The notes beneath the pieces were generated by a model, which did not search any database, was not told where the DNA came from, and was given only the letters and a program-made list of their open reading frames with translations. Source: a virus. Taken from it: a stretch of DNA of 64,000 nt. Positions 26,953 through 37,477 of the stretch are shown here, piece by piece. The translations under genes were made by a program, and so were the position numbers. The stretch spans positions 1-64,000 of the IMG/VR virus record IMGVR_UViG_3300008113_000014; one strand, given 5' to 3'. How positions within the stretch are numbered: position 1 is the stretch's first letter; each line of letters starts with the position of its first letter.

Positions 26953-27425
26953 TATATCTCCGTAAACTCAATGCTCATATCAACATAGTCTGAAACCTTT
27001 GTTCTATTAATAATTGTTTTAGAAAAATCAGTTATAAACACATGATATGTTTTAGACCTGTTCTGTGCTGTAACAAATATTCCTAATGGCTGTGATCCAA
27101 AGCCTGAGTCTACATTAAGTCCTGAAGATACAATCTTTAAGTAAATAGGCAGTCCTGCGTTAGACTTATAAAATGACTCAAGCCAAGCAGCGCTATAAAA
27201 ACCATCAACACACTCAGAATGCTTTGATGGAACATATTTCCAAGAACAAGAAATATTATTTTTTTGAGCAACAACATATTTTCTCATTTTGCCATTGGCC
27301 ATGCGGGATTGTGTTTCAATTAACTCTGTAGAAATATCAATGGCATCTCTATTATGATCTGTTATCTTATACCAAGTGTTACCATCAATAGAGATCTGTA
27401 TTCCTGCATCAATTAAATATGCCAT
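26952..27425 (-). CDS. Distal tail (Dit-like) protein
   Basis: Directly follows the tape measure; RMANGKMRKY..A.K....SW and D.SIEFTEI. Confidence 0.65.
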   Translation of the reverse strand: MAYLIDAGIQISIDGNTWYKITDHNRDAIDISTELIETQSRMANGKMRKYVVAQKNNISCSWKYVPSKHSECVDGFYSAAWLESFYKSNAGLPIYLKIVSSGLNVDSGFGSQPLGIFVTAQNRSKTYHVFITDFSKTIINRTKVSDYVDMSIEFTEI

Positions 27426-30400
27426 TATCTGCCCACCAAATTCGTTTTATTGTTTTTGCTTTGTATTCTTTCTAATTGTATCATAACCTCTTGTGCTATT
27501 TGCTTAGGGTCTTTATCTGCACCGTTAATTGTAATGTTATTTGTAACAGGTCCAGAAGATGAGAAGTTCTTGTTTTCTTGTGCAGTAAGTACACGCTCAC
27601 CCTTGTGAAGCTGTGCAATTTGATCTTCAGGAATGTATGGTGAACCAACTTCGTAAGATGGAAGTTTGTATTTAGCAAGACCGCCATTAGCAAAACGAGA
27701 ACCTTTGGCAATTTGAATTTTTCTTTCTATGGCTTTTATTTCTTCTTTAGTAAGATCTGTTTTATATTGGTAATAACCCATTTCTTTTCTAATTGACTCT
27801 ATATCTGGATTGCTGACAGTGCCTCCCATGAAACCGTACATATTCATTATGTTGAATGGATTTAATGAATGGCTGCCCTGCACATCGCCTAGGTGCCTGT
27901 CTAACCATGATGATTTACCACTTGGATTGCACATGTCGCAGTTTGCTGACTCACCTAGGTGCCCTTGAAAAGAGTGAATAATCTCATGCATCGCTACGTC
28001 TTTTCCGCCAGCGGTGCTAAAAGGATTTAATCCCATCCAAGTGTCGCTCATTTTTGCTCTAGGCATGGTAATTGTGCCAGAATTCATTGCCCACCAGTTA
28101 GCAGGACCACCGCCTCGCTCTTCTCTTAGAGCATCTCCATCAAGAAATTGTATTGGAATAACTTTAGGGCCTGTATACTTGCTATATGCAGCTTTTGCAA
28201 GTATTTTTTCTCTATTTTCTGGCTTGATAACTCTAAACGGGACTCCTGTTAATCTTGTCAACTCATTTGCAGCCATATAGATAGAGGATAGATTTCTTTT
28301 TCTATCTTCTTTTCCTTCAGAAGTGTAATCTTTTACATCCAGATAAACTGGCCTTAGTTTACCATAACCGCTGTCTCTTTGAGCCTTGTAGTATGGTGTA
28401 CGAATGGAAGCAGGTGAGGTGCCATCATCAGGAGATACGGATTCAGGGACATAAGTGTCAAATCCAGCTCCTGTTTCTCTGGATTGAAATCTTTGAACAA
28501 CATTTTTTAGTACTGAAAATGCAGACAGTGGCGGGATCTTACCGCTAACTAATGTTTTTAATTGATTTAATGCAAACTTTGGAAGAGATTCTGGTTTTTG
28601 GTTATCAGTAAACTTAGGAAGATATGGGTTCCAGTAATCCCAGTCTCTGGCCCACTCTGGCACTTGCTCACCTGTTCTCATTGCCATATCATGTGGGGCT
28701 GTGTTTGATGGACCTGAAGTTGGAAACAGTTTCATTCCCATATCGTGTGGGGCTGATCTAGATGGAATTATTCCTCTCATCATATCGTAAGCATGCTGAG
28801 GTAAATTTGTTTTGTGCTTGTGTCCTACTGGACCAACACCGCCAGGGCTTCCTTTACCAAATTTTTGAATTAGTCCACCCTTAGCGTATCCATCAAGTTG
28901 ATCTTTAAATGATAGGTCTGAAAATCCTACAGCATGCCCAGACTGTCTTTTTCGTAATTCCAACTCTTTAGCTTTTTTAGCAAGTGCTGCTGCAGATGGT
29001 GTTTTTACTGGTGCTGGAACAACGCTTGCTGCCATTGGTTGAAATGGCGACCAATCTACTCCTGGTGCTGCTCCCGCTCTTAGTCTACCTATCAGATTTG
29101 CATAAGATTGTATTTCATCTGGATCAGTGAGATTAAATGATGCTATGGCTTCTTCTACCAATGGAATTTGTCTGTTAATTTCTTTTATAATTGCATCATG
29201 GTATTCTGCTGGTGTCATTGATTGTGCAATTGGTGCTGTTGTTTCAGCAAACCATCTTTTTGCCCCGCCCTTTACACCTAGTAAATTAATAGCAGCCTGC
29301 TCTTGCATTGATGGCATTGAGGTGGAAAGCTTTCTCATTCCAGAAGCTACATCGTATACTCCTGAAGTTCCTGAGTCAACAAGATTTTTTCCAGACAGGT
29401 TTGCTTTTTGTAAATCTTTATCTCCACGCCACAAAGATGCAACCAGTTGTGTTATATATTCACCCTGTGTAAATTCTCCAGATGGGTTTGCAAATTCTGG
29501 ATTATAAGCAGACTTTAATGCTAGCAGTGTTCTTTTTGCTTTTGCATCTGAAGGATCCATTATTTTTATTAAATCTTGAATTGGTGTAGTTAGTCCAACT
29601 TTTCTTGAAATTACATTAGATCTAATTTCAGATAAACCAGATAAAGAATCTGTTACTGGCTTGACAAATTCTTTTGTTCCATCTGCACCCTCATATAGAC
29701 CACCAATTCCTCTAACTGGAAAACTTTTACCAACTGTTGCTTCTAGTTGTTTTCCTAATTGTGTGATTGGAAGATCTTTAAAGATACCGTTTTTAATAGA
29801 GGCATCTATTGCTTTCATTGTTTGTTCAGATGCTCGTGCTTCTTCTAGTGCTTTTATTCCTCGTGGCATACCAAGGAATAAACCTCTACTAGCACCCATT
29901 CCCATAAAGTTAAGTGGCAGCATGGATGCTCCTAGAGCGTCTCCACCTTTACCTTGTCCAGTAATAAGTCTTAATAGTTGTGCTGTTCCAAACATTTCAG
30001 CAGCTGGTGTATTTTTAGAATTAAATCCAGATACATATCTTTGGAACCAATTTTGTTTTTTACCATACTTTGGTCTTGATGCTAATCCGCCTTCTGCAAA
30101 TCTACCCTTCATTTCAATAATCTTAGCTCGCATGGCAGTCTTAGATAAATCGCCAAGAATTTGACTTTCTACTTCACTTGCAGAACCCATGCCAGCATCT
30201 ACATACTTATACTTATCGTGTCTGCTATAACCAATAGTTCCATCACTACCTAGCCATGAGTATGCAGGTCCGTCAGAAACTTTTATTGGCTTAGTAAGTT
30301 TAGCAGCAGTCTTTGCTGCCCCACCCCTTCTAGCCATTTCATATGCATACTTAGCATAGGCAGTAGTACCTTTAGGAGGTGCTTGAATTAGCGTATTTGT

Positions 30401-33400
30401 AAGAGCGTCATGAGGGTGTGGATGTACGTAGCCACCGTCATGATAACCAATCATGTTTCCGCCACCGCCACCTAGTAGCCCGCCAAAAGCTGCAGATGCC
30501 CCAGAGCCAATTAATGGGGGAGTAATCTTATCAATACCCATTCCAGGACCACTAGACTTTCTTAGTTGCTCTGCTAGCTGATGCCAGTAATCAGAGAACT
30601 GACCTACCTTTCCACTAAATGGAAGTCCTGGTATCTCTACTCCGCCCCATGGATCTTTGCCAGCATTATTAAATATAGGCTTTCCATTTTTATCAAAGCC
30701 AATCGGAGAGCCCTGATATAGTCTTTCTAATTCTCCCCAGTATCTTCCATATGGACTTCCAGTAGGCTGGTTATTAGAGTCATAGCTTCTTGCTGGCTTT
30801 TTCCACCAAGGATGGACTGCTCCGCCCTTTGCAAACTTTCCAGCATTCAATGCATCCATTACTCCTGTGCCATACTTCTTTACAGAAGAAGCTTTGACAA
30901 CATACTCTCCATCTGAAAGCATTGCTGGAATAGAGTCAGATGTTGCAGTTCCTGGACCCTTTACTTTTCCACCAGGCTTGAAGTGCTTTATGTATCCACC
31001 TTCTGCTAATTTTTGTGGCTTACCCATTCTAATAAAGTCACCATTTTTTACAACTTTCCACTTATATGTAAGTCCATCTGCACCAATTGTACTAACAACA
31101 ATAAAGTCTGTAGCTTTCTTTAAACGATCAAGATCTGTTTGGATTTGACTTCTAACGTATTTTTCAAATTCATCTCTAGTTTTTCCTGTTACTTGTGATG
31201 TATCCCACCACTGTTTGCTATCATTCCATGCTACTTTTGGATCAAGGTCTGCAGCTGTGACAGGAATAGCTGCATCTGCAGTTGTTGCACCCGCAGGCCA
31301 TATCTTTGGTTTATTTTGTTCAACCCAAGCTTTTCTGCTTGCTGCACTTACATCTACTGGAACCGCAGTAGAAGAGTTTGTGCCTGATTGTGTTGTATCA
31401 AATGTTATAGAACCAATAGCTGCAACAATGCTTGCTGCGTTAGCAGCTGCATCTGCAGATGCATCATTAATAGCAGATACAACATCGTCAGACATTGCTT
31501 GAATTGCATCTATTTGGGCTTGCAGTGCATCAGATTTTGCTTGTAGGTCTGATATTGTTTTTTCTTTATTAAATTCTACTGTATTGTTTTGTTTTTCTTG
31601 TAAAAGGCTTGCAGCTTCAATATACTTTCCTCTAATTTTAGCTTCAAGAATTTGCTGATCAAGGTCTTGTTGTTTTTGTGTATACTCAGATTGTTTTTTT
31701 AACTCATCTGTTATTGCTTGTTCTTTCTTTATTTCATCATCAATAATTTTCTTTTTTGCTTTAAGAAGTTTAATTTGTTCTTTTGTAGATTTTACTTGAG
31801 CATCAGCTAACTCTTTGTATTTTTTTGTTACGCTTCCTGAATTTGTTTTTTCCCATATTTTTGGATCATTTAAAAAATCAAGGGCTGCCTTAGCTAAATC
31901 TTTTCCTTGTGTTGCTGGATTAATTTTTGCTTCAAACCCTTTTCCTACTGCAGCCATAATTAATCCTGTTTGCTCTAACGTTATTCCGTTTACTCTCTTT
32001 AGTGCTTGAATTGCTTGAGCTGCCTGCAAGTTTCCTACTTGAATGTATGCATAATATAGTGCACCCAAACCTTCTGCTGCAGAAAGACCAGATTGTGCAA
32101 CACCATCTAAAATAACATCTAGTTGCTGTAAAGATGATGCATTTGCTGCTGCAGCCATTACTTGCGTTAATGCTGTTCCTAATGTTAGAGAGCTTCCTGA
32201 TGCATCTTTTAGTGTTTGCACAACTGCTTCAGTTTGACTTTTTAAATTCATAAAATTAGATCCAACCATAGCAACCTTACCACTAGATGCTAAGATTAAA
32301 TCAAAAGTTTTTTGTGCTTGATCTGGTTTAATTTGACCCAGAGCAACTTGTGTTGTAACAAAAGCTTGGGCAATTTTATTAATTTTTTCTGGAGATGATT
32401 CTTCTGTTAAACCAGTTATAAGATCTCTTAAAGGATTTCCTTCTGGCAGCTGGCTAACCATTTCATTAAATCTAGCAAGCTCATCTGTTGTATATCCAAA
32501 TGCTTTGCCAATATTTTCTAAGCTACCGCCTACAATTCCAAGAGATACACCAAAGTTACTTATAGAAGTATCTACATTAACTATTTCATTACCAAAATAT
32601 GCAGCTATATCAGCACTAGATTTGAATGCTGCTTCTGTCATTGCTTTTTGAATTCTTTGTTTTTCAATTAATTCACTTATTGCAGATGATACAAGACCTA
32701 TTGCTGCACCAGCTGCAGCTCCCCAAGGACCAAATAGCATACCCATGCTTGCACCAGTCATTGTTGACTGTATTAGATTTTTACCAGCAAAATCAGGCGC
32801 TGCACTAAGAGCCATATTAGCACCCATAAGTCCTACGCTGCCTTGAACGCCACCGAACTTAGCTCCAACTTTTTTAATGTTTGCGTATTTTGCTTTTCTT
32901 GCACGCTGATTTTTTAGTTTCTTTTTTTCCTTCTCAGACATACCGACCATTGGAAGAAGGGTTGTTCCTGATGGCATGCTTGGTCCTATTGGAGCAGGGC
33001 CCTGTTCTCTTGTTGCAATGCGACGAGCCTTACCACTTTGAGTTGATTTTTCTTTTGTTTTATTTATTGCTTCTTCTTTTGCTGTTTGATATGCAATACC
33101 ATCTTCTTTACCGTGGGTAGCAGCCAATCGGTGGGGGCTTCCTCTGTCTAGGCTTGCCTCATAAGGATCTTTTGTTGATGCCTTAACTCCCTTTGTATAC
33201 TCTGTGCCATCTTTAGATCCACGTTTAAATAAAGATTTAATTCTACCTCTGTCGTCATAGTAGTCGTCTCTAACTGATGCATCTACAACAGCACTTTGAT
33301 TTCTTTTAACTCTTTTACCTGAAAGCCCCATAAATGATTTTCCTGAACCAAACACTGCAGCATCCGATGGAACTTGTTGCCCTGGTTTATAAGGAGTGCC

Positions 33401-36382
33401 GAATTGAACTTGGCCCTTTGCCATATCTCTTGGAACTGCATTAAGCTGTGTTCTATTAAATACATTAGTCTTTGTATTTTTTTCGTCATAGCCAGCAACT
33501 GCGCCCATTTCTTTTAGCAATGTTGCTTTGTATGCTGCCTCTTTTATTTTTCTTTTTTCTAAATCTGTTTTTGCTTCTTTTACAAGTTGTAGTGTTGCTT
33601 TTTCTGCTTCTGCAATTTTTTGTTTTGCCAAGGTAGATGCCTCTTCTGCAGACAAACCTTTTTGCATTAATGTATACTCTAATGCTTGAGTAGATTTCAT
33701 TTTTGTAAAATCTGCTTTTTTAGCTTCAACTTCTTGTTGAGACAGACCAACTAAGCTTTTTTCTAAATCTAGTTGTTCTTGAACTAATATTTTTGCTTGT
33801 TCTTTTTGCGCCCTAGTATTATCTGTTTCATTTTTAGATGGTTTATCAATATAGGCTTGAGCTTTTTTACTTGCTTCTTGCGCTTGTTCAAATGTTATTG
33901 GTTCTCCTGCAATGCCAGCGGAATTTAACATAAAGTTTCTATCAGCAGATGTTTTAGTTGTTGTTCCAGCAAATTCACCAGTTCCGATTGCTGTTACATC
34001 TTCAATATTATTTTCTAATAAGCTACTAGACAGACTTCTAAGAGATGTTTCAATAGTTCTACTTACTGTTACCATTCCATCGGCTGTTGTGGACAATCTT
34101 TGAATACTAACACCAACATCTGGCAAAACTGACAAAACTCTTTGCATTGTTGGGTCTGACAGTGTTGTAGTTAATTGTGCTGGAGTAAATCCCTCTATGT
34201 GGCTTGCTACTGTTTTGGCACCTGGCTTTCCAACAGAATACCCAGGAATATTGTCTGCAATCATTCCATTAATGAGTCCACCATACTTCTTGCTCATCTT
34301 TGTTGGAATTACTGTTTCTCCAGGCATGAGTAGTGATAGCTCTGTGTCTTTATTTCCTGTACCGCCAACTACTGCAGGCTTTCCATTTGCTCTCTTTGTA
34401 ACTGGTGCTCTTTTAAATGGAACCTTGGTTGGCATTAATTGTGCCTGTGCTGCAACTGCTCTGTAATATGCTCTTGTTAGTGCATCAACTGCTGAAGCTT
34501 CTACAGTAAAGGTTTGTGCAAGATTTTTGTGCACTTGATCAAGAGATGCTGCAACCGCTGCTGCATTTCTTTGCTCAAGAGTCATATACTTAACTTCAGT
34601 ACCTAGCGTTGCACTAGACTTACCAGCTTTATTAAAAATACTTTTTAGGAATGTAAAGCCTTTAATTATATTTGCTAAACCGTTTGCAAGCAAACCAAAT
34701 GTCATTAATAATACTGGACCAAGGCCTGCAACTATTGCTGTTAATGTAACAATAACCTTTTTTGTTCCATCTCCAAGATTATTAAACTTATCTAAAATTT
34801 TTGTAACAAACTCAGCAATTGGTGTTACTGCTTTTAAAAACTCTTCTCCTACTGGAACTAATGATAGCTTAAGATTTTCAATAGATGCTTTAAATTTGTT
34901 CATTGCAGACTCTGAAGTCATTCCTAATTCTTTTTCTGACAATGCTGCAAGTTCTTGAATTGATGATCCAGCTAGGTCAAGTACACGTGATGCCTGAGTT
35001 CCTTCTTTTGTTACGTTTGCAAATAAAGTAGATAGACGAGCAAACTGAAACTTACCAAACATTTGTTCAATTGCTTGTGCTCTATTTAGTGGATCAAGTT
35101 GATTTAATGCTGTTGCAAAGTCAATAACTGTTTTCTTTAAGTCACCCTTATTGTCTACAACAATCTTTTTTATATTAATACCAAGACTGTTAAGCATTGC
35201 TGCTGCTTTTCCAGTTGGGTTAATCATAGAAGCAAGACCAGACTTGAGTGCGTTAGCACCTTCTGATGCGTTTATTCCACCTTCCTTCATTGCAGTCATA
35301 AAGAATGCTAAATCCTTAACATCTCCGCCAAGCTGTTGAATAACTGGTGCTGCCTTTGGAATTGCAGTTGACATGTCATCAAGTGATAAAACAGTTTGGT
35401 TTTCTACTGCGTTAAGAAAGTCAATATTCGTTGCTAAATCTTGAGATGACATTGAGAATGCATTTTGCAATGCAATGGTAGTTTCAAGTGCCTTTTGGCT
35501 TTCAACTTGTCCTAAAACAGAAAGCTTGGTTGCTGCTGCTGTTTGTCTTTGAAGGTCAACTCCTTTAAAACCTGCTGCTGCAGCTTCTGCTGCTAAACCT
35601 ACTGTATCTTTTACTGCGATGCCATACTTTGTAAACTCTTTTCCAAGAGCCTTTATTTCTTCTAATGCTGCAGTACTTTCTGTCGTTGATGTAAATAGAT
35701 CACCATATACCTTTTTAAAACGTATTGCCTGAGTTTCCATATCCATAAATGTTTTAGCAGCTGCTGCTCCAACAGCCATTAATGGAATTGTAAAACCAAC
35801 CATAAGCTGACGGCCAGCCCATTGTGTATTTTTACCAAAGTTTAAAAGATTAGTTGATCCTTGCTTTAACAGCTGATTAAGAATTGCCTGCTTTTCAGCA
35901 GCAATCATTGTCTTTGTTGCAAGATCATTCATATCAAGAGATAGAGGTCTTACGGCAATTGCCTTCATTGCACCGCTAGCATCACGGCCCATCTTAATAT
36001 ATTGTGTTTGAAGGTCTTTTACATTTTCTCTTGCTACTTTGTTTATTGTATCAAACTCAGTTTTAAATAGTTTTCCAAAAGTTTTTGATGCCCCACCAGC
36101 ATATCTAAAATATTCTTTCATGGAGAACTTGTTTTTTTCTAAAGAGCTTGTAAAAGATTCTGTGGTTGTTTTGATTGTTCTCATTTGGGCAGAGAACTGG
36201 CCTGTAGCATTAATTGAGTTAATTAAGTTTTGCTGCATTTGGGCAGTGACTGCATTTGCTGCAGCACCGCCTTTTGCCATTGAGGTATGAAAGGCTGATA
36301 TCTGTCTTTGTAAGTTTTTGATACTGGCTAGTGCTTCAGTAGTATCAATACTTACTTTAATATTAGACTGAACATCAGCCAT
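27425..36382 (-). CDS. Tape measure protein with C-terminal cargo modules
   Basis: 2985 aa; Ala-rich helical TP901-type core (GINASEGANALKS, AIEQMFGK); follows tail chaperones; GPGTATSDSIPAMLSDGEYVV and LHKGERVL motifs. Confidence 0.93.
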   Translation of the reverse strand: MADVQSNIKVSIDTTEALASIKNLQRQISAFHTSMAKGGAAANAVTAQMQQNLINSINATGQFSAQMRTIKTTTESFTSSLEKNKFSMKEYFRYAGGASKTFGKLFKTEFDTINKVARENVKDLQTQYIKMGRDASGAMKAIAVRPLSLDMNDLATKTMIAAEKQAILNQLLKQGSTNLLNFGKNTQWAGRQLMVGFTIPLMAVGAAAAKTFMDMETQAIRFKKVYGDLFTSTTESTAALEEIKALGKEFTKYGIAVKDTVGLAAEAAAAGFKGVDLQRQTAAATKLSVLGQVESQKALETTIALQNAFSMSSQDLATNIDFLNAVENQTVLSLDDMSTAIPKAAPVIQQLGGDVKDLAFFMTAMKEGGINASEGANALKSGLASMINPTGKAAAMLNSLGINIKKIVVDNKGDLKKTVIDFATALNQLDPLNRAQAIEQMFGKFQFARLSTLFANVTKEGTQASRVLDLAGSSIQELAALSEKELGMTSESAMNKFKASIENLKLSLVPVGEEFLKAVTPIAEFVTKILDKFNNLGDGTKKVIVTLTAIVAGLGPVLLMTFGLLANGLANIIKGFTFLKSIFNKAGKSSATLGTEVKYMTLEQRNAAAVAASLDQVHKNLAQTFTVEASAVDALTRAYYRAVAAQAQLMPTKVPFKRAPVTKRANGKPAVVGGTGNKDTELSLLMPGETVIPTKMSKKYGGLINGMIADNIPGYSVGKPGAKTVASHIEGFTPAQLTTTLSDPTMQRVLSVLPDVGVSIQRLSTTADGMVTVSRTIETSLRSLSSSLLENNIEDVTAIGTGEFAGTTTKTSADRNFMLNSAGIAGEPITFEQAQEASKKAQAYIDKPSKNETDNTRAQKEQAKILVQEQLDLEKSLVGLSQQEVEAKKADFTKMKSTQALEYTLMQKGLSAEEASTLAKQKIAEAEKATLQLVKEAKTDLEKRKIKEAAYKATLLKEMGAVAGYDEKNTKTNVFNRTQLNAVPRDMAKGQVQFGTPYKPGQQVPSDAAVFGSGKSFMGLSGKRVKRNQSAVVDASVRDDYYDDRGRIKSLFKRGSKDGTEYTKGVKASTKDPYEASLDRGSPHRLAATHGKEDGIAYQTAKEEAINKTKEKSTQSGKARRIATREQGPAPIGPSMPSGTTLLPMVGMSEKEKKKLKNQRARKAKYANIKKVGAKFGGVQGSVGLMGANMALSAAPDFAGKNLIQSTMTGASMGMLFGPWGAAAGAAIGLVSSAISELIEKQRIQKAMTEAAFKSSADIAAYFGNEIVNVDTSISNFGVSLGIVGGSLENIGKAFGYTTDELARFNEMVSQLPEGNPLRDLITGLTEESSPEKINKIAQAFVTTQVALGQIKPDQAQKTFDLILASSGKVAMVGSNFMNLKSQTEAVVQTLKDASGSSLTLGTALTQVMAAAANASSLQQLDVILDGVAQSGLSAAEGLGALYYAYIQVGNLQAAQAIQALKRVNGITLEQTGLIMAAVGKGFEAKINPATQGKDLAKAALDFLNDPKIWEKTNSGSVTKKYKELADAQVKSTKEQIKLLKAKKKIIDDEIKKEQAITDELKKQSEYTQKQQDLDQQILEAKIRGKYIEAASLLQEKQNNTVEFNKEKTISDLQAKSDALQAQIDAIQAMSDDVVSAINDASADAAANAASIVAAIGSITFDTTQSGTNSSTAVPVDVSAASRKAWVEQNKPKIWPAGATTADAAIPVTAADLDPKVAWNDSKQWWDTSQVTGKTRDEFEKYVRSQIQTDLDRLKKATDFIVVSTIGADGLTYKWKVVKNGDFIRMGKPQKLAEGGYIKHFKPGGKVKGPGTATSDSIPAMLSDGEYVVKASSVKKYGTGVMDALNAGKFAKGGAVHPWWKKPARSYDSNNQPTGSPYGRYWGELERLYQGSPIGFDKNGKPIFNNAGKDPWGGVEIPGLPFSGKVGQFSDYWHQLAEQLRKSSGPGMGIDKITPPLIGSGASAAFGGLLGGGGGNMIGYHDGGYVHPHPHDALTNTLIQAPPKGTTAYAKYAYEMARRGGAAKTAAKLTKPIKVSDGPAYSWLGSDGTIGYSRHDKYKYVDAGMGSASEVESQILGDLSKTAMRAKIIEMKGRFAEGGLASRPKYGKKQNWFQRYVSGFNSKNTPAAEMFGTAQLLRLITGQGKGGDALGASMLPLNFMGMGASRGLFLGMPRGIKALEEARASEQTMKAIDASIKNGIFKDLPITQLGKQLEATVGKSFPVRGIGGLYEGADGTKEFVKPVTDSLSGLSEIRSNVISRKVGLTTPIQDLIKIMDPSDAKAKRTLLALKSAYNPEFANPSGEFTQGEYITQLVASLWRGDKDLQKANLSGKNLVDSGTSGVYDVASGMRKLSTSMPSMQEQAAINLLGVKGGAKRWFAETTAPIAQSMTPAEYHDAIIKEINRQIPLVEEAIASFNLTDPDEIQSYANLIGRLRAGAAPGVDWSPFQPMAASVVPAPVKTPSAAALAKKAKELELRKRQSGHAVGFSDLSFKDQLDGYAKGGLIQKFGKGSPGGVGPVGHKHKTNLPQHAYDMMRGIIPSRSAPHDMGMKLFPTSGPSNTAPHDMAMRTGEQVPEWARDWDYWNPYLPKFTDNQKPESLPKFALNQLKTLVSGKIPPLSAFSVLKNVVQRFQSRETGAGFDTYVPESVSPDDGTSPASIRTPYYKAQRDSGYGKLRPVYLDVKDYTSEGKEDRKRNLSSIYMAANELTRLTGVPFRVIKPENREKILAKAAYSKYTGPKVIPIQFLDGDALREERGGGPANWWAMNSGTITMPRAKMSDTWMGLNPFSTAGGKDVAMHEIIHSFQGHLGESANCDMCNPSGKSSWLDRHLGDVQGSHSLNPFNIMNMYGFMGGTVSNPDIESIRKEMGYYQYKTDLTKEEIKAIERKIQIAKGSRFANGGLAKYKLPSYEVGSPYIPEDQIAQLHKGERVLTAQENKNFSSSGPVTNNITINGADKDPKQIAQEVMIQLERIQSKNNKTNLVGR

Positions 36383-36408: not shown

Positions 36409-36732
36409 TTATTCTTCAGTATTAAAAATTGATGCTGCTTCAGAAAGTTTAATTCCTGATGCTGTTTCAACAATCTCATATACTGTAGGCAAGTCAATAT
36501 TATCCTCAAGCGCAGCAATGTCAGTTGCTAGCTCTGGCTTATATTGTTCCATTGCGATTAGTACACACTCCATTAGTAGATTGATTGATTTATCATTATC
36601 TTCTACTACTGCTGCAATACCCTCAAACTTTTTCATAAACTTTCGTAAAAGTGAAATCTTAAGCGGTCTTAAGGTTATCTCTGTACCATCAATTAATTTG
36701 ACTTTATGCGCTTCATGCACAGTTGTTGCCAT
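36409..36732 (-). CDS. Tail assembly chaperone (short form)
   Basis: Between major tail and tape measure genes; paralogous to the N-half of 36761..37477. Confidence 0.7.
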   Translation of the reverse strand: MATTVHEAHKVKLIDGTEITLRPLKISLLRKFMKKFEGIAAVVEDNDKSINLLMECVLIAMEQYKPELATDIAALEDNIDLPTVYEIVETASGIKLSEAASIFNTEE

Positions 36733-36759: not shown

Positions 36760-36768
36760 ATTATACCA
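36760..36768 (-). promoter_or_regulatory. Extended -10 promoter TGGTATAAT
   Basis: Overlaps the stop codon of the long chaperone; precedes the short chaperone. Confidence 0.6.
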
Positions 36769-37477
36769 TGAGAGAGGGGTCTCTTGCGTCTTCATAATCA
36801 AGACCCATGCCAATTCCAAATCCTACTCTTTGAGCATTTTGTCCTTGCAGTGCTAATATGTCATTACTATCATTTGTTGCTCCACCGCTAAATACTCTAG
36901 CCTTTAAATCTTCCCATTCTTTTTGACCTTTTTCAGGTTCAGATCCGCCTTCTAAATCAATACCTTGAATTGATGCAAAGAATTTCTTTTCTTGATAGTC
37001 TAATTCTCTTTTACTTGCTATTATTGATAATAGTTCAGACAATGATATTGATGATTCTAGCTCACTGTAATCTTTCCATATACCCAGCAAAAATACCTCT
37101 GATTCAAGTTTTGCTAAATCAAAGTCTTCCCATGTTGGACCAGCCTCACTACTTTGGGCCTGAGTCTTTATGCTTTCTTCTGAATCTTCACCTATTTTTA
37201 TATTTGCAGCAACCTCTAAAATTTCATGTACTGTTGGTAAATCTATGTTATCTTCAAGATCTTCTAGGTTTTTAGATATTTGAGGATAGTATTGTTTCAT
37301 TGCAATTCTTGCACACTCTAATAAAACCATCATTGATTCATCGTCATTTTGTGCATACTTTATTTTATTAAATACATCCATAAACTCTCTAAGATACTTA
37401 ATCTTAAGAGGCATTATTTCTATTTCTGTACCGTCAAATAAATAGATGTTTTTTGTTTTATATATTGATGTTGCCAT
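36761..37477 (-). CDS. Tail assembly chaperone (long form)
   Basis: Same N-domain as 36409..36732 plus a C-terminal extension. Confidence 0.65.
   Translation of the reverse strand: MATSIYKTKNIYLFDGTEIEIMPLKIKYLREFMDVFNKIKYAQNDDESMMVLLECARIAMKQYYPQISKNLEDLEDNIDLPTVHEILEVAANIKIGEDSEESIKTQAQSSEAGPTWEDFDLAKLESEVFLLGIWKDYSELESSISLSELLSIIASKRELDYQEKKFFASIQGIDLEGGSEPEKGQKEWEDLKARVFSGGATNDSNDILALQGQNAQRVGFGIGMGLDYEDARDPSLMV

Follow-up and report, generated by a model that had tools for sequence, protein, structure and literature searches.

A 64,000-nt stretch of viral DNA (positions 1 to 64,000 of IMG/VR record IMGVR_UViG_3300008113_000014; 'the window' below means this stretch at its full length) carries on its minus strand a single open reading frame (ORF) of 2985 amino acids (aa), which encodes a tape measure protein (TMP) of the TP901 or PhageMin_Tail type. 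The Pfam profile PhageMin_Tail (PF10145) matches aa 243-443 (E 5e-26; score 92 bits, cut-off 33), and nine tape-measure families of PHROG (phrog_10030 at E 5e-96 and eight more) cover only about aa 1-1100. Compared with the N-terminal 1789 aa, the C-terminal 1196 aa contain more G, P, W, Y and H and less A and Q. This shift of composition, together with a PHROG cover that ends near aa 1100, agrees with the original prediction, made from the DNA letters and their ORFs, that the last ~1190 aa are not helical-repeat-like. The prediction had also marked six GG motifs in this part, and each was found within about 10 nt of the expected position; the segments between them had been described as mutually unrelated and two of them as enzymatic in appearance, which was recovered as well, the two having kinase-like and zincin-like predicted folds. 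We refer to the six motifs as joints and to the segments that they delimit as C0 to C5. The features are given below in the order of the protein, with the positions where matches to relatives start or end; a seventh, degenerate joint closes the list.

27425-36382, minus strand: TMP gene (protein P0001), 2985 aa, single ORF with PhageMin_Tail and PHROG profiles
30995-31012, minus strand: joint 1, KLAEGG, aa 1791-1796 (first G aa 1795, nt 31000); 55 match starts at aa 1790-1809
30842-30994, minus strand: C0, conserved block GG..GPGTxTSDSIPAxLSxGExVV..YG..LN of ~50 aa, aa 1797-1847, between joints 1 and 2
30821-30838, minus strand: joint 2, KFAKGG, aa 1849-1854 (first G aa 1853, nt 30826); 53 match ends at aa 1850-1859
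30449-30820, minus strand: cassette C1, aa 1855-1978, with a Gly-rich hydrophobic stretch at its end
30431-30448, minus strand: joint 3, GYHDGG, a variant with H for A, aa 1979-1984 (first G aa 1983, nt 30436); 49 match ends at aa 1970-1999
30104-30430, minus strand: cassette C2, aa 1985-2093, rare
30086-30103, minus strand: joint 4, RFAEGG, aa 2094-2099 (first G aa 2098, nt 30091); 34 match starts at aa 2090-2109
28892-30085, minus strand: cassette C3 (segment family B), aa 2100-2497, with a short variable lead-in, a kinase-like core and a linker
28946-29863, minus strand: atypical protein-kinase-like core of C3, by predicted fold and conserved residues, aa 2174-2479
28874-28891, minus strand: joint 5, GYAKGG, aa 2498-2503 (first G aa 2502, nt 28879); 42 match ends at aa 2500-2529
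27698-28873, minus strand: cassette C4, aa 2504-2895, putative zincin-like metallopeptidase with HEIIH at aa 2799-2803 (nt 27974-27988)
27680-27697, minus strand: joint 6, RFANGG, aa 2896-2901 (first G aa 2900, nt 27685); 23 match starts at aa 2890-2899
27428-27679, minus strand: C5, aa 2902-2985, the conserved C-terminus with a third block of the GG..GE.V type, which resembles C0 (z 4.9)
34223-34384, minus strand: degenerate joint and first GG..GE.V block, aa 667-720, similar to C0 (z 4.5) and to lambda gpH 725-790 (z 5.1)

The full pattern [FYL]AxGG occurs five times, while shuffled sequences contained it on average 0.38 times (whole protein) or 0.20 times (last 1196 aa); five copies were not reached in any of 5000 shuffles. 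Joint 3 corresponds to YADGG in relative P0004. From 314 sites in 120 related proteins, an eight-residue consensus, [KRG][FY]AxGG[LIMY][VAI], was derived. The C-terminus of Pup and double-glycine leader peptides were considered as parallels to the joint and dropped, as the spacing differs and nothing speaks in their support.

Two of the delimited segments are conserved rather than variable. In a tblastn search with the last 1198 aa, C0 was the only part of the C-terminal third that matched TMPs of cultured phages (177 records, from Gordonia, Mycobacterium, Vibrio and Burkholderia phages), and nothing beyond this block of ~60 aa was matched in the phage collection. A phmmer search of PDB sequences recovered the C0 block in Douge gp16, which has two copies, and in JBD30 gp46 (1016-1080), with no other match; the C0-like stretch is absent from the modelled coordinates of both structures, where only the last 33-42 residues are modelled. 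C5 is 89-98% identical in the 22 closest relatives (P0002-P0023) regardless of what lies upstream, and it is always terminal. By analogy with T5, 80alpha, JBD30 and Douge, this end piece would sit in the baseplate hub or tail tip (PMC10038345, PMC11445458, PMC13033339). A sub-threshold Pfam row for MDH in C5 (E 0.12) was not used.

Cassette exchange among relatives

A search with aa 1790-2985 yielded 233 proteins, of which 120 were listed; almost all of these are TMPs, with lengths of 1700-4700 aa, and many come from contigs of ~110 kb. They cover 100, 74, 35 or 16% of the query region. Megablast of the TMP gene against 50,697 phage records gave no match. BLASTP comparison with 119 metagenomic relatives provided 507 internal match ends between aa 1700 and 2940, 51% of which are no more than 10 aa away from a joint (expected, 10%); the share was 76% among matches with at least 60% identity. 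When 232 TMPs were compared all against all, well-supported breakpoints of high identity were 11-12 times enriched at joints. This family-wide count is restricted to high-identity, multiply supported breakpoints, which replaced a count of every match as unweighted distinct breakpoints that was saturated and gave a 1.5-fold enrichment only.

Single relatives show what such junctions look like (a slash marks the junction). In P0004, aa 1985-2094 are missing, C2 being gone exactly from joint to joint, and the protein reads ..YADGG/LASRPKYG; in P0012 the first block is fused directly to the kinase cassette, reading ..RFADGG/LASRPKYG; and P0022, where the peptidase-like cassette C4 is missing, reads ..GYAKGG/MVNYRLPSYEVG. 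The same can be seen in DNA: blastn matches to L002, an IMG/VR locus, stop at aa 1854/2093, 2503 and 2904, one 21-nt joint is common to two matches, and a single joint fuses C0 straight to C3. In another IMG/VR locus, L001, a novel cassette of 550 aa is flanked by two joints.

Cutting 37 TMPs at the motif and clustering the pieces gave 67 segment families, in which the query cassettes keep their length from joint to joint (C1, 127-139 aa; C2, 115-117; C3, 398-418; C4, 361-398) beside many different neighbours. C1 has eight different right-hand neighbours, and C3 has at least nine different left-hand and at least ten different right-hand ones. Among 256 relatives, C1 was found in 78, C4 in 14 and C2 in only six. 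The identity of a cassette is often far from that of its chassis: C1 reaches 94% identity in TMPs with a far more diverged N-terminal part, C2 shows 87-93% identity where the TMPs around it have ~40% at the N-terminus (P0024, P0033), and P0007 is 98% identical in C3 against 77% in the N-terminal part. Junctions, breakpoints and cassette clustering thus agree that module gain and loss break at the AxGG motifs, as an alignment of relatives had been expected to reveal, and the joint is very probably the unit boundary of evolutionary exchange. The claim that the joints let modules be swapped holds for the outcome, exchange junctions being found at joints; as a rule for every event it does not, since alleles of C4 were exchanged at breaks that miss the joints (see below).

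The C2-type cassette is tandemly duplicated in P0024, where it alternates with a segment family of 55-71 aa in a K-H-K-H order, and P0033 has one K-H unit; thus, cassettes also amplify within one gene. Some relatives (P0011-P0015) have a second copy of the kinase-cassette lead-in behind the cassette. Between P0001 and P0003, which are otherwise 99-100% identical, this lead-in contains a patch of divergence (30-65% identity) at aa ~2120-2160 (window 29900-30025).

Exchange is also seen upstream of the C-terminal third. In many relatives, the [FYL]AxGG at aa 667 or 619 is complete, and in the protein studied here the degenerate joint at aa 667 and its block are followed by a second variable region, aa 720-~1050 (33230-34222). 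Homology to P0010, P0032, P0036 and P0037 ends at aa 719-722 and resumes at about aa 1044-1051 (P0010, P0032, P0036), and most family members have a kinase-like domain in this slot instead. With a seventh joint, a block and a variable region from aa 667 onward, the modular design therefore starts before aa 1790.

Enzyme-like modules

The core of C3 is kinase-like, with a bilobal predicted fold in which the predicted catalytic residues are intact. An AlphaFold2 model of aa 2090-2510 has a pLDDT of ~75-98 over most of the core, and the best 50 structural matches found with VIA-align are all kinase-like, among them CotH (5jda, Z 11.5, rmsd 4.0 over 218 aligned residues), MavQ (9.7), CtkA (9.4), PI4KIIalpha (9.2) and HipA (8.9). 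The top Foldseek matches are likewise all kinases, and they are weak (E 2e-3 or weaker). In 24 sequences of 34-94% identity, D2321, N2328, D2336 and G2338 are invariant and K2241, E2252 and D2323 nearly so; these residues fit the beta-3 Lys, the alpha-C Glu, the D..N catalytic loop and the DxG metal site, the roles being assigned by pattern and not by structural superposition. Against Pfam, C3 matched no family even at E 10. As no curated kinase profile matches, we call C3 kinase-like by fold and assign it to no named family.

C4 looks zincin-like, judged from its HExxH motif and a predicted fold of low confidence. In 12 sequences, down to 48% identity, H2799, E2800, H2803 and H2838 are invariant and H2808 is not, and HEIIH lies on predicted helix 296-309 of the C4 model. 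The model is poor, with a mean pLDDT of 46 and values of 60-77 in the core (aa 2675-2807); with this low-confidence model, 35 of the best 40 structural matches, including the best 18, are zinc metallopeptidases (snapalysin, Z 9.1; MMP-9, 8.5; ADAM-8, 8.2). The ESM Atlas gave a weak lead to Peptidase_M10 (0.81-0.82), and Pfam gave no match. The related-locus search found no relative of C4 in viral contigs, and among proteins of 216-688 aa no stand-alone homologue was seen but one of 594 aa on a 3-kb contig, probably a fragment.

For C1 and C2, a per-cassette Pfam search (E up to 10) provided no usable lead, a sub-threshold row for Gly-zipper_Omp in C1 (E 0.06) not being used, and the ESM Atlas gave none either (best score 0.77). 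Relatives have CHAP, LysM, OmpA-like and tail-lysozyme domains in the same region; CHAP together with LysM is bracketed by joints, and Phage_lysozyme2 begins 30 aa past a joint.

Proposed delivery, possible cleavage and rival readings

The original prediction had read the protein as a polyprotein delivery vehicle whose GG motifs act as cleavage sites or recombination joints. In our reading, the last 1200 residues of this siphophage TMP form a chain of self-contained modules linked by one conserved eight-residue peptide: the GG..GE.V block, two cassettes, the kinase-like module, the zincin-like module and an end piece that would anchor in the tail tip. Whole cassettes are deleted, inserted, duplicated and reordered among relatives with the junction on a joint, and recombination between two joints of one gene leaves one hybrid joint behind. 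Like other TMPs, the protein would adopt a non-native state inside the tail lumen and exit before the DNA, which would bring the enzyme modules into the host envelope or cytoplasm, where they might refold and be active; at least some joints may act as hinges or be processed, so that modules are released or kept apart. Taken as a whole, this reading of exchange at joints, ejected enzyme modules and joints as processing or hinge sites seems likely to us. Its parts are not equally probable: delivery of the cassettes into the host, by analogy with other phages, might or might not occur with about equal chance, and cleavage at the joints, again by analogy, is a tentative suggestion that we would sooner doubt than accept.

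The analogies come from lambda and T5. Residues 731-785 of lambda gpH (NC_001416, gene H) contain a GG..GEFV block with FATGG before and YATGG after it, arranged as joints 1 and 2; a hidden Markov model (HMM) built from C0 finds this stretch with 16.3 bits, and the pairwise z is 4.3-5.1. gpH is matured to gpH* by a cut in a glycine-rich region that removes a C-terminal piece of ~14 kDa, gpHC, which stays in the tail tip (PMC12617516). A cut at FATGG would give 12.5 kDa (12.5-12.7 kDa to the C-terminus), near the reported size of gpHC. Lambda gpH thus resembles the TMP here in its C0-type block with a joint on each side, next to which gpH itself is cut within glycine-rich sequence (Hendrix and Casjens 1974; Tsui and Hendrix 1983; PMC12617516), but it has one block, no enzyme cassettes and only 853 aa.

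In T5, a cut after R1127 splits pb2 into pb2* and pb2C (PMC10038345), and the sequence at the cut (NC_005859, 14122-17781; residues 1124-1150) is R/AEGG, here with the slash at the cut, followed by GEHGTEVVTP. As in the lambda case, a C-terminal piece is severed in tail assembly and stays in the tip, and it has been proposed to be expelled into the host (Boulanger 2008; Linares 2023, PMC10038345). T5 differs in having R in place of the aromatic residue and a single cut that yields a single small C-terminal fragment. The AEGG at R1127 is the only AxGG of pb2 that precedes a GE..E.V stretch, a stretch earlier annotated as a zinc-carboxypeptidase signature.

The strongest form of the cleavage idea would make [FY]AxGG a general maturation signal of TMPs, with the lambda cut at about F733/A734, and the TMP here a polyprotein with up to six cuts and seven pieces, from which active kinase and metallopeptidase would be injected ahead of the DNA after processing by the zincin cassette or a host protease. 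We consider this unlikely.

Several observations weigh against the reading that we prefer. Between 60 and 75% of the well-supported family-wide breakpoints are away from any joint, and the kinase core is marked by a pair of boundaries that lack the motif (~aa 2160-2190 and 2440-2460). In the two closest relatives, an allele swap of the C4 core (~aa 2540-2880, window 27740-28760) breaks inside the cassette, ~40 aa and 17 aa from its ends and not at joints; the core is ~45-53% identical in P0003, which is elsewhere 99-100% identical, and in P0002, elsewhere 93-100%. Of the 256 relatives, 212 have a kinase-like domain, usually immediately behind the first block at about aa 720-1020; joints flank it on both sides in only 18%, and it may be a core part of the TMP and not swappable cargo. 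The claim of enzyme-like cargo is therefore retained for C3 as far as its kinase-like fold goes, and weakened by a domain that is widely conserved, mostly not bracketed by motifs elsewhere and less cargo-like than had been supposed. The model of C4 is of low confidence. The lambda cut site is unmapped, so lambda cannot yet prove that a joint is a cleavage site; T5 pb2 has no similarity to the block by HMM or pairwise alignment, and thus its likeness is a resemblance of a four-residue motif only. Moreover, folded domains of 300-400 aa, three per trimer, cannot fit abreast in a tube lumen of ~4 nm, and hence a non-native transport state must be assumed.

The main rival to ejection and processing is that the joints are structural linkers only, as a hinge, a docking strand to tube or hub or a chaperone binding site, in a TMP that stays intact, in-frame junctions being tolerated only between folded units. 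The joint-bearing flanks of the cassette models are predicted to be disordered (pLDDT below 50 around C3), as a linker would be, and the GG..GE.V block directly follows 39% of joints, so that the joint may be its first strand; for JBD30, the authors of the structure predicted that the homologous stretch forms a 'hook' by which the baseplate retains the TMP (PMC11445458). However, the block is absent after the other 61%, a plain linker need not preserve eight residues over hundreds of diverged proteins, and cuts fall near the element in lambda gpH (PMC12617516) and at R/AEGG in T5 (PMC10038345). Linkage or docking without cleavage is a serious possibility, though we would not bet on it.

The second rival takes the cassettes as parts of the ruler or of tail assembly and not as cargo: their gain and loss would tune tail length, or the enzymes would act in morphogenesis, for instance a zincin that matures the tail. 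The length of a TMP sets that of the tail (Katsura 1987, cited in PMC12617516), the relatives span 2047 to 4706 aa, the kinase-like domain is near-universal in the family at a fairly fixed place, and zincin domains of phage polyvalent proteins have been proposed to serve autoprocessing (PMC5512222). Yet the CHAP, LysM, OmpA-like and tail-lysozyme domains found in the same slots of relatives act on the host wall and not on the tail, and T5 pb2C has been proposed to be expelled into the periplasm (PMC10038345). We judge this explanation improbable.

Less probable still, with a very small chance in our estimate, is that the motif is a signal in DNA, either microhomology or a recombinase site, whose conserved peptide is a by-product. 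A single hybrid joint is what remains after a deletion from joint to joint, just as would be expected of unequal crossing-over between repeats, and some pairs of joints are identical at 12 of 15 nt. However, the six joints, a small sample, vary freely in synonymous codons for Gly (GGT, GGC, GGA), Ala (GCA, GCT) and Leu (TTA, CTA, CTT), and the exact run common to all six is at most ~6 nt; the peptide motif also recurs in TMPs from phages of Actinobacteria, Vibrio and Burkholderia and from coliphages, with very different codon usage. Because the six joints differ in synonymous codons, the joint is conserved as a peptide and not as DNA, and it is selection on the peptide that has kept it. Hence, selection that retains only junctions at a functional joint is likelier than a dedicated DNA recombination signal, although microhomology of ~6-12 nt perhaps aids illegitimate recombination at joints. 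That the motifs are a chance product of a region with 11.5% glycine is refuted by the shuffles and by their coincidence with homology breakpoints, and its probability is negligible.

Relation to known systems

In polymorphic toxins, exchange of variable C-terminal modules takes place at a short conserved peptide (VENN in CdiA, PxxxxDPxGL in Rhs). The TMP here likewise has a conserved motif at the exchange point, but it offers several internal slots instead of one C-terminal tip, its chassis is a virion protein and no immunity genes were seen. The tail-associated lysin (Tal) of the lactococcal phages Tuc2009 and TP901-1 reportedly cuts itself at a glycine-rich site and sheds an enzymatic C-terminal domain; that is a different protein with a different motif.

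Enzyme domains inside the ruler are known from TMPs with wall-hydrolase motifs, as in mycobacteriophage TM4 (Piuri and Hatfull 2006, PMC1796659) and in staphylococcal and lactococcal phages; those are wall hydrolases, whereas here kinase-like and zincin-like domains are predicted in an exchangeable array of modules delimited by the motif. Polyvalent proteins (Iyer, Burroughs, Anand, de Souza, Aravind 2017, PMC5512222) are likewise giant and combine unrelated enzyme domains, including zincin-like peptidases and kinases, and they have been proposed to accompany the DNA into the host and to process themselves (PMC5512222). Similarly, predicted kinase-like and zincin-like domains stand together in one protein of 2985 aa here, and relatives add CHAP, lysozyme and OmpA-like domains. 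The kinase clade of polyvalent proteins has no C-terminal lobe (PMC5512222), whereas C3 keeps a helical lobe and resembles CotH, PI4K and HipA. The paper on polyvalent proteins does not mention tape measure proteins (0 occurrences) or a conserved joint peptide (PMC5512222).

Enzyme-bearing TMPs, TMP maturation and polyvalent proteins are thus already known; the literature that we searched describes no joint peptide as an exchange point and no kinase-like or zincin-like modules inside a TMP. TMPs are usually seen as rulers with at most a wall-degrading motif, but in the protein studied here and hundreds of metagenomic relatives they also appear to be a chassis with slots, in which kinase-like, peptidase-like, wall-binding and lytic modules are exchanged at one conserved peptide. 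The joint is a testable candidate for the cut site of lambda gpH, which has been unmapped for fifty years, and may share a common logic with the T5 pb2 cut. If the modules were delivered, the polyvalent-protein idea would extend to the tail lumen as a route for enzymes other than wall hydrolases. The joint boundaries are natural places where foreign modules might enter a TMP in phage engineering. Even without cleavage or delivery, this would still be a clear example of how domains of a virion protein are shuffled under the guidance of a motif.

Outside the C-terminal third, the TMP has hydrophobic segments at aa 540-575 and 1213-1239. Its gene lies in a block of structural genes that is nearly all on the minus strand of the window, with a pair of small chaperone-like ORFs and a protein with an Ig domain upstream and a minor tail protein of 1403 aa downstream. 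The two ORFs immediately upstream of the TMP gene, 36409-36732 (107 aa) and 36761-37477 (238 aa), both match phrog_10504 with their own N-terminal 100 residues, which fits a chaperone pair made from two genes and not by a frameshift.

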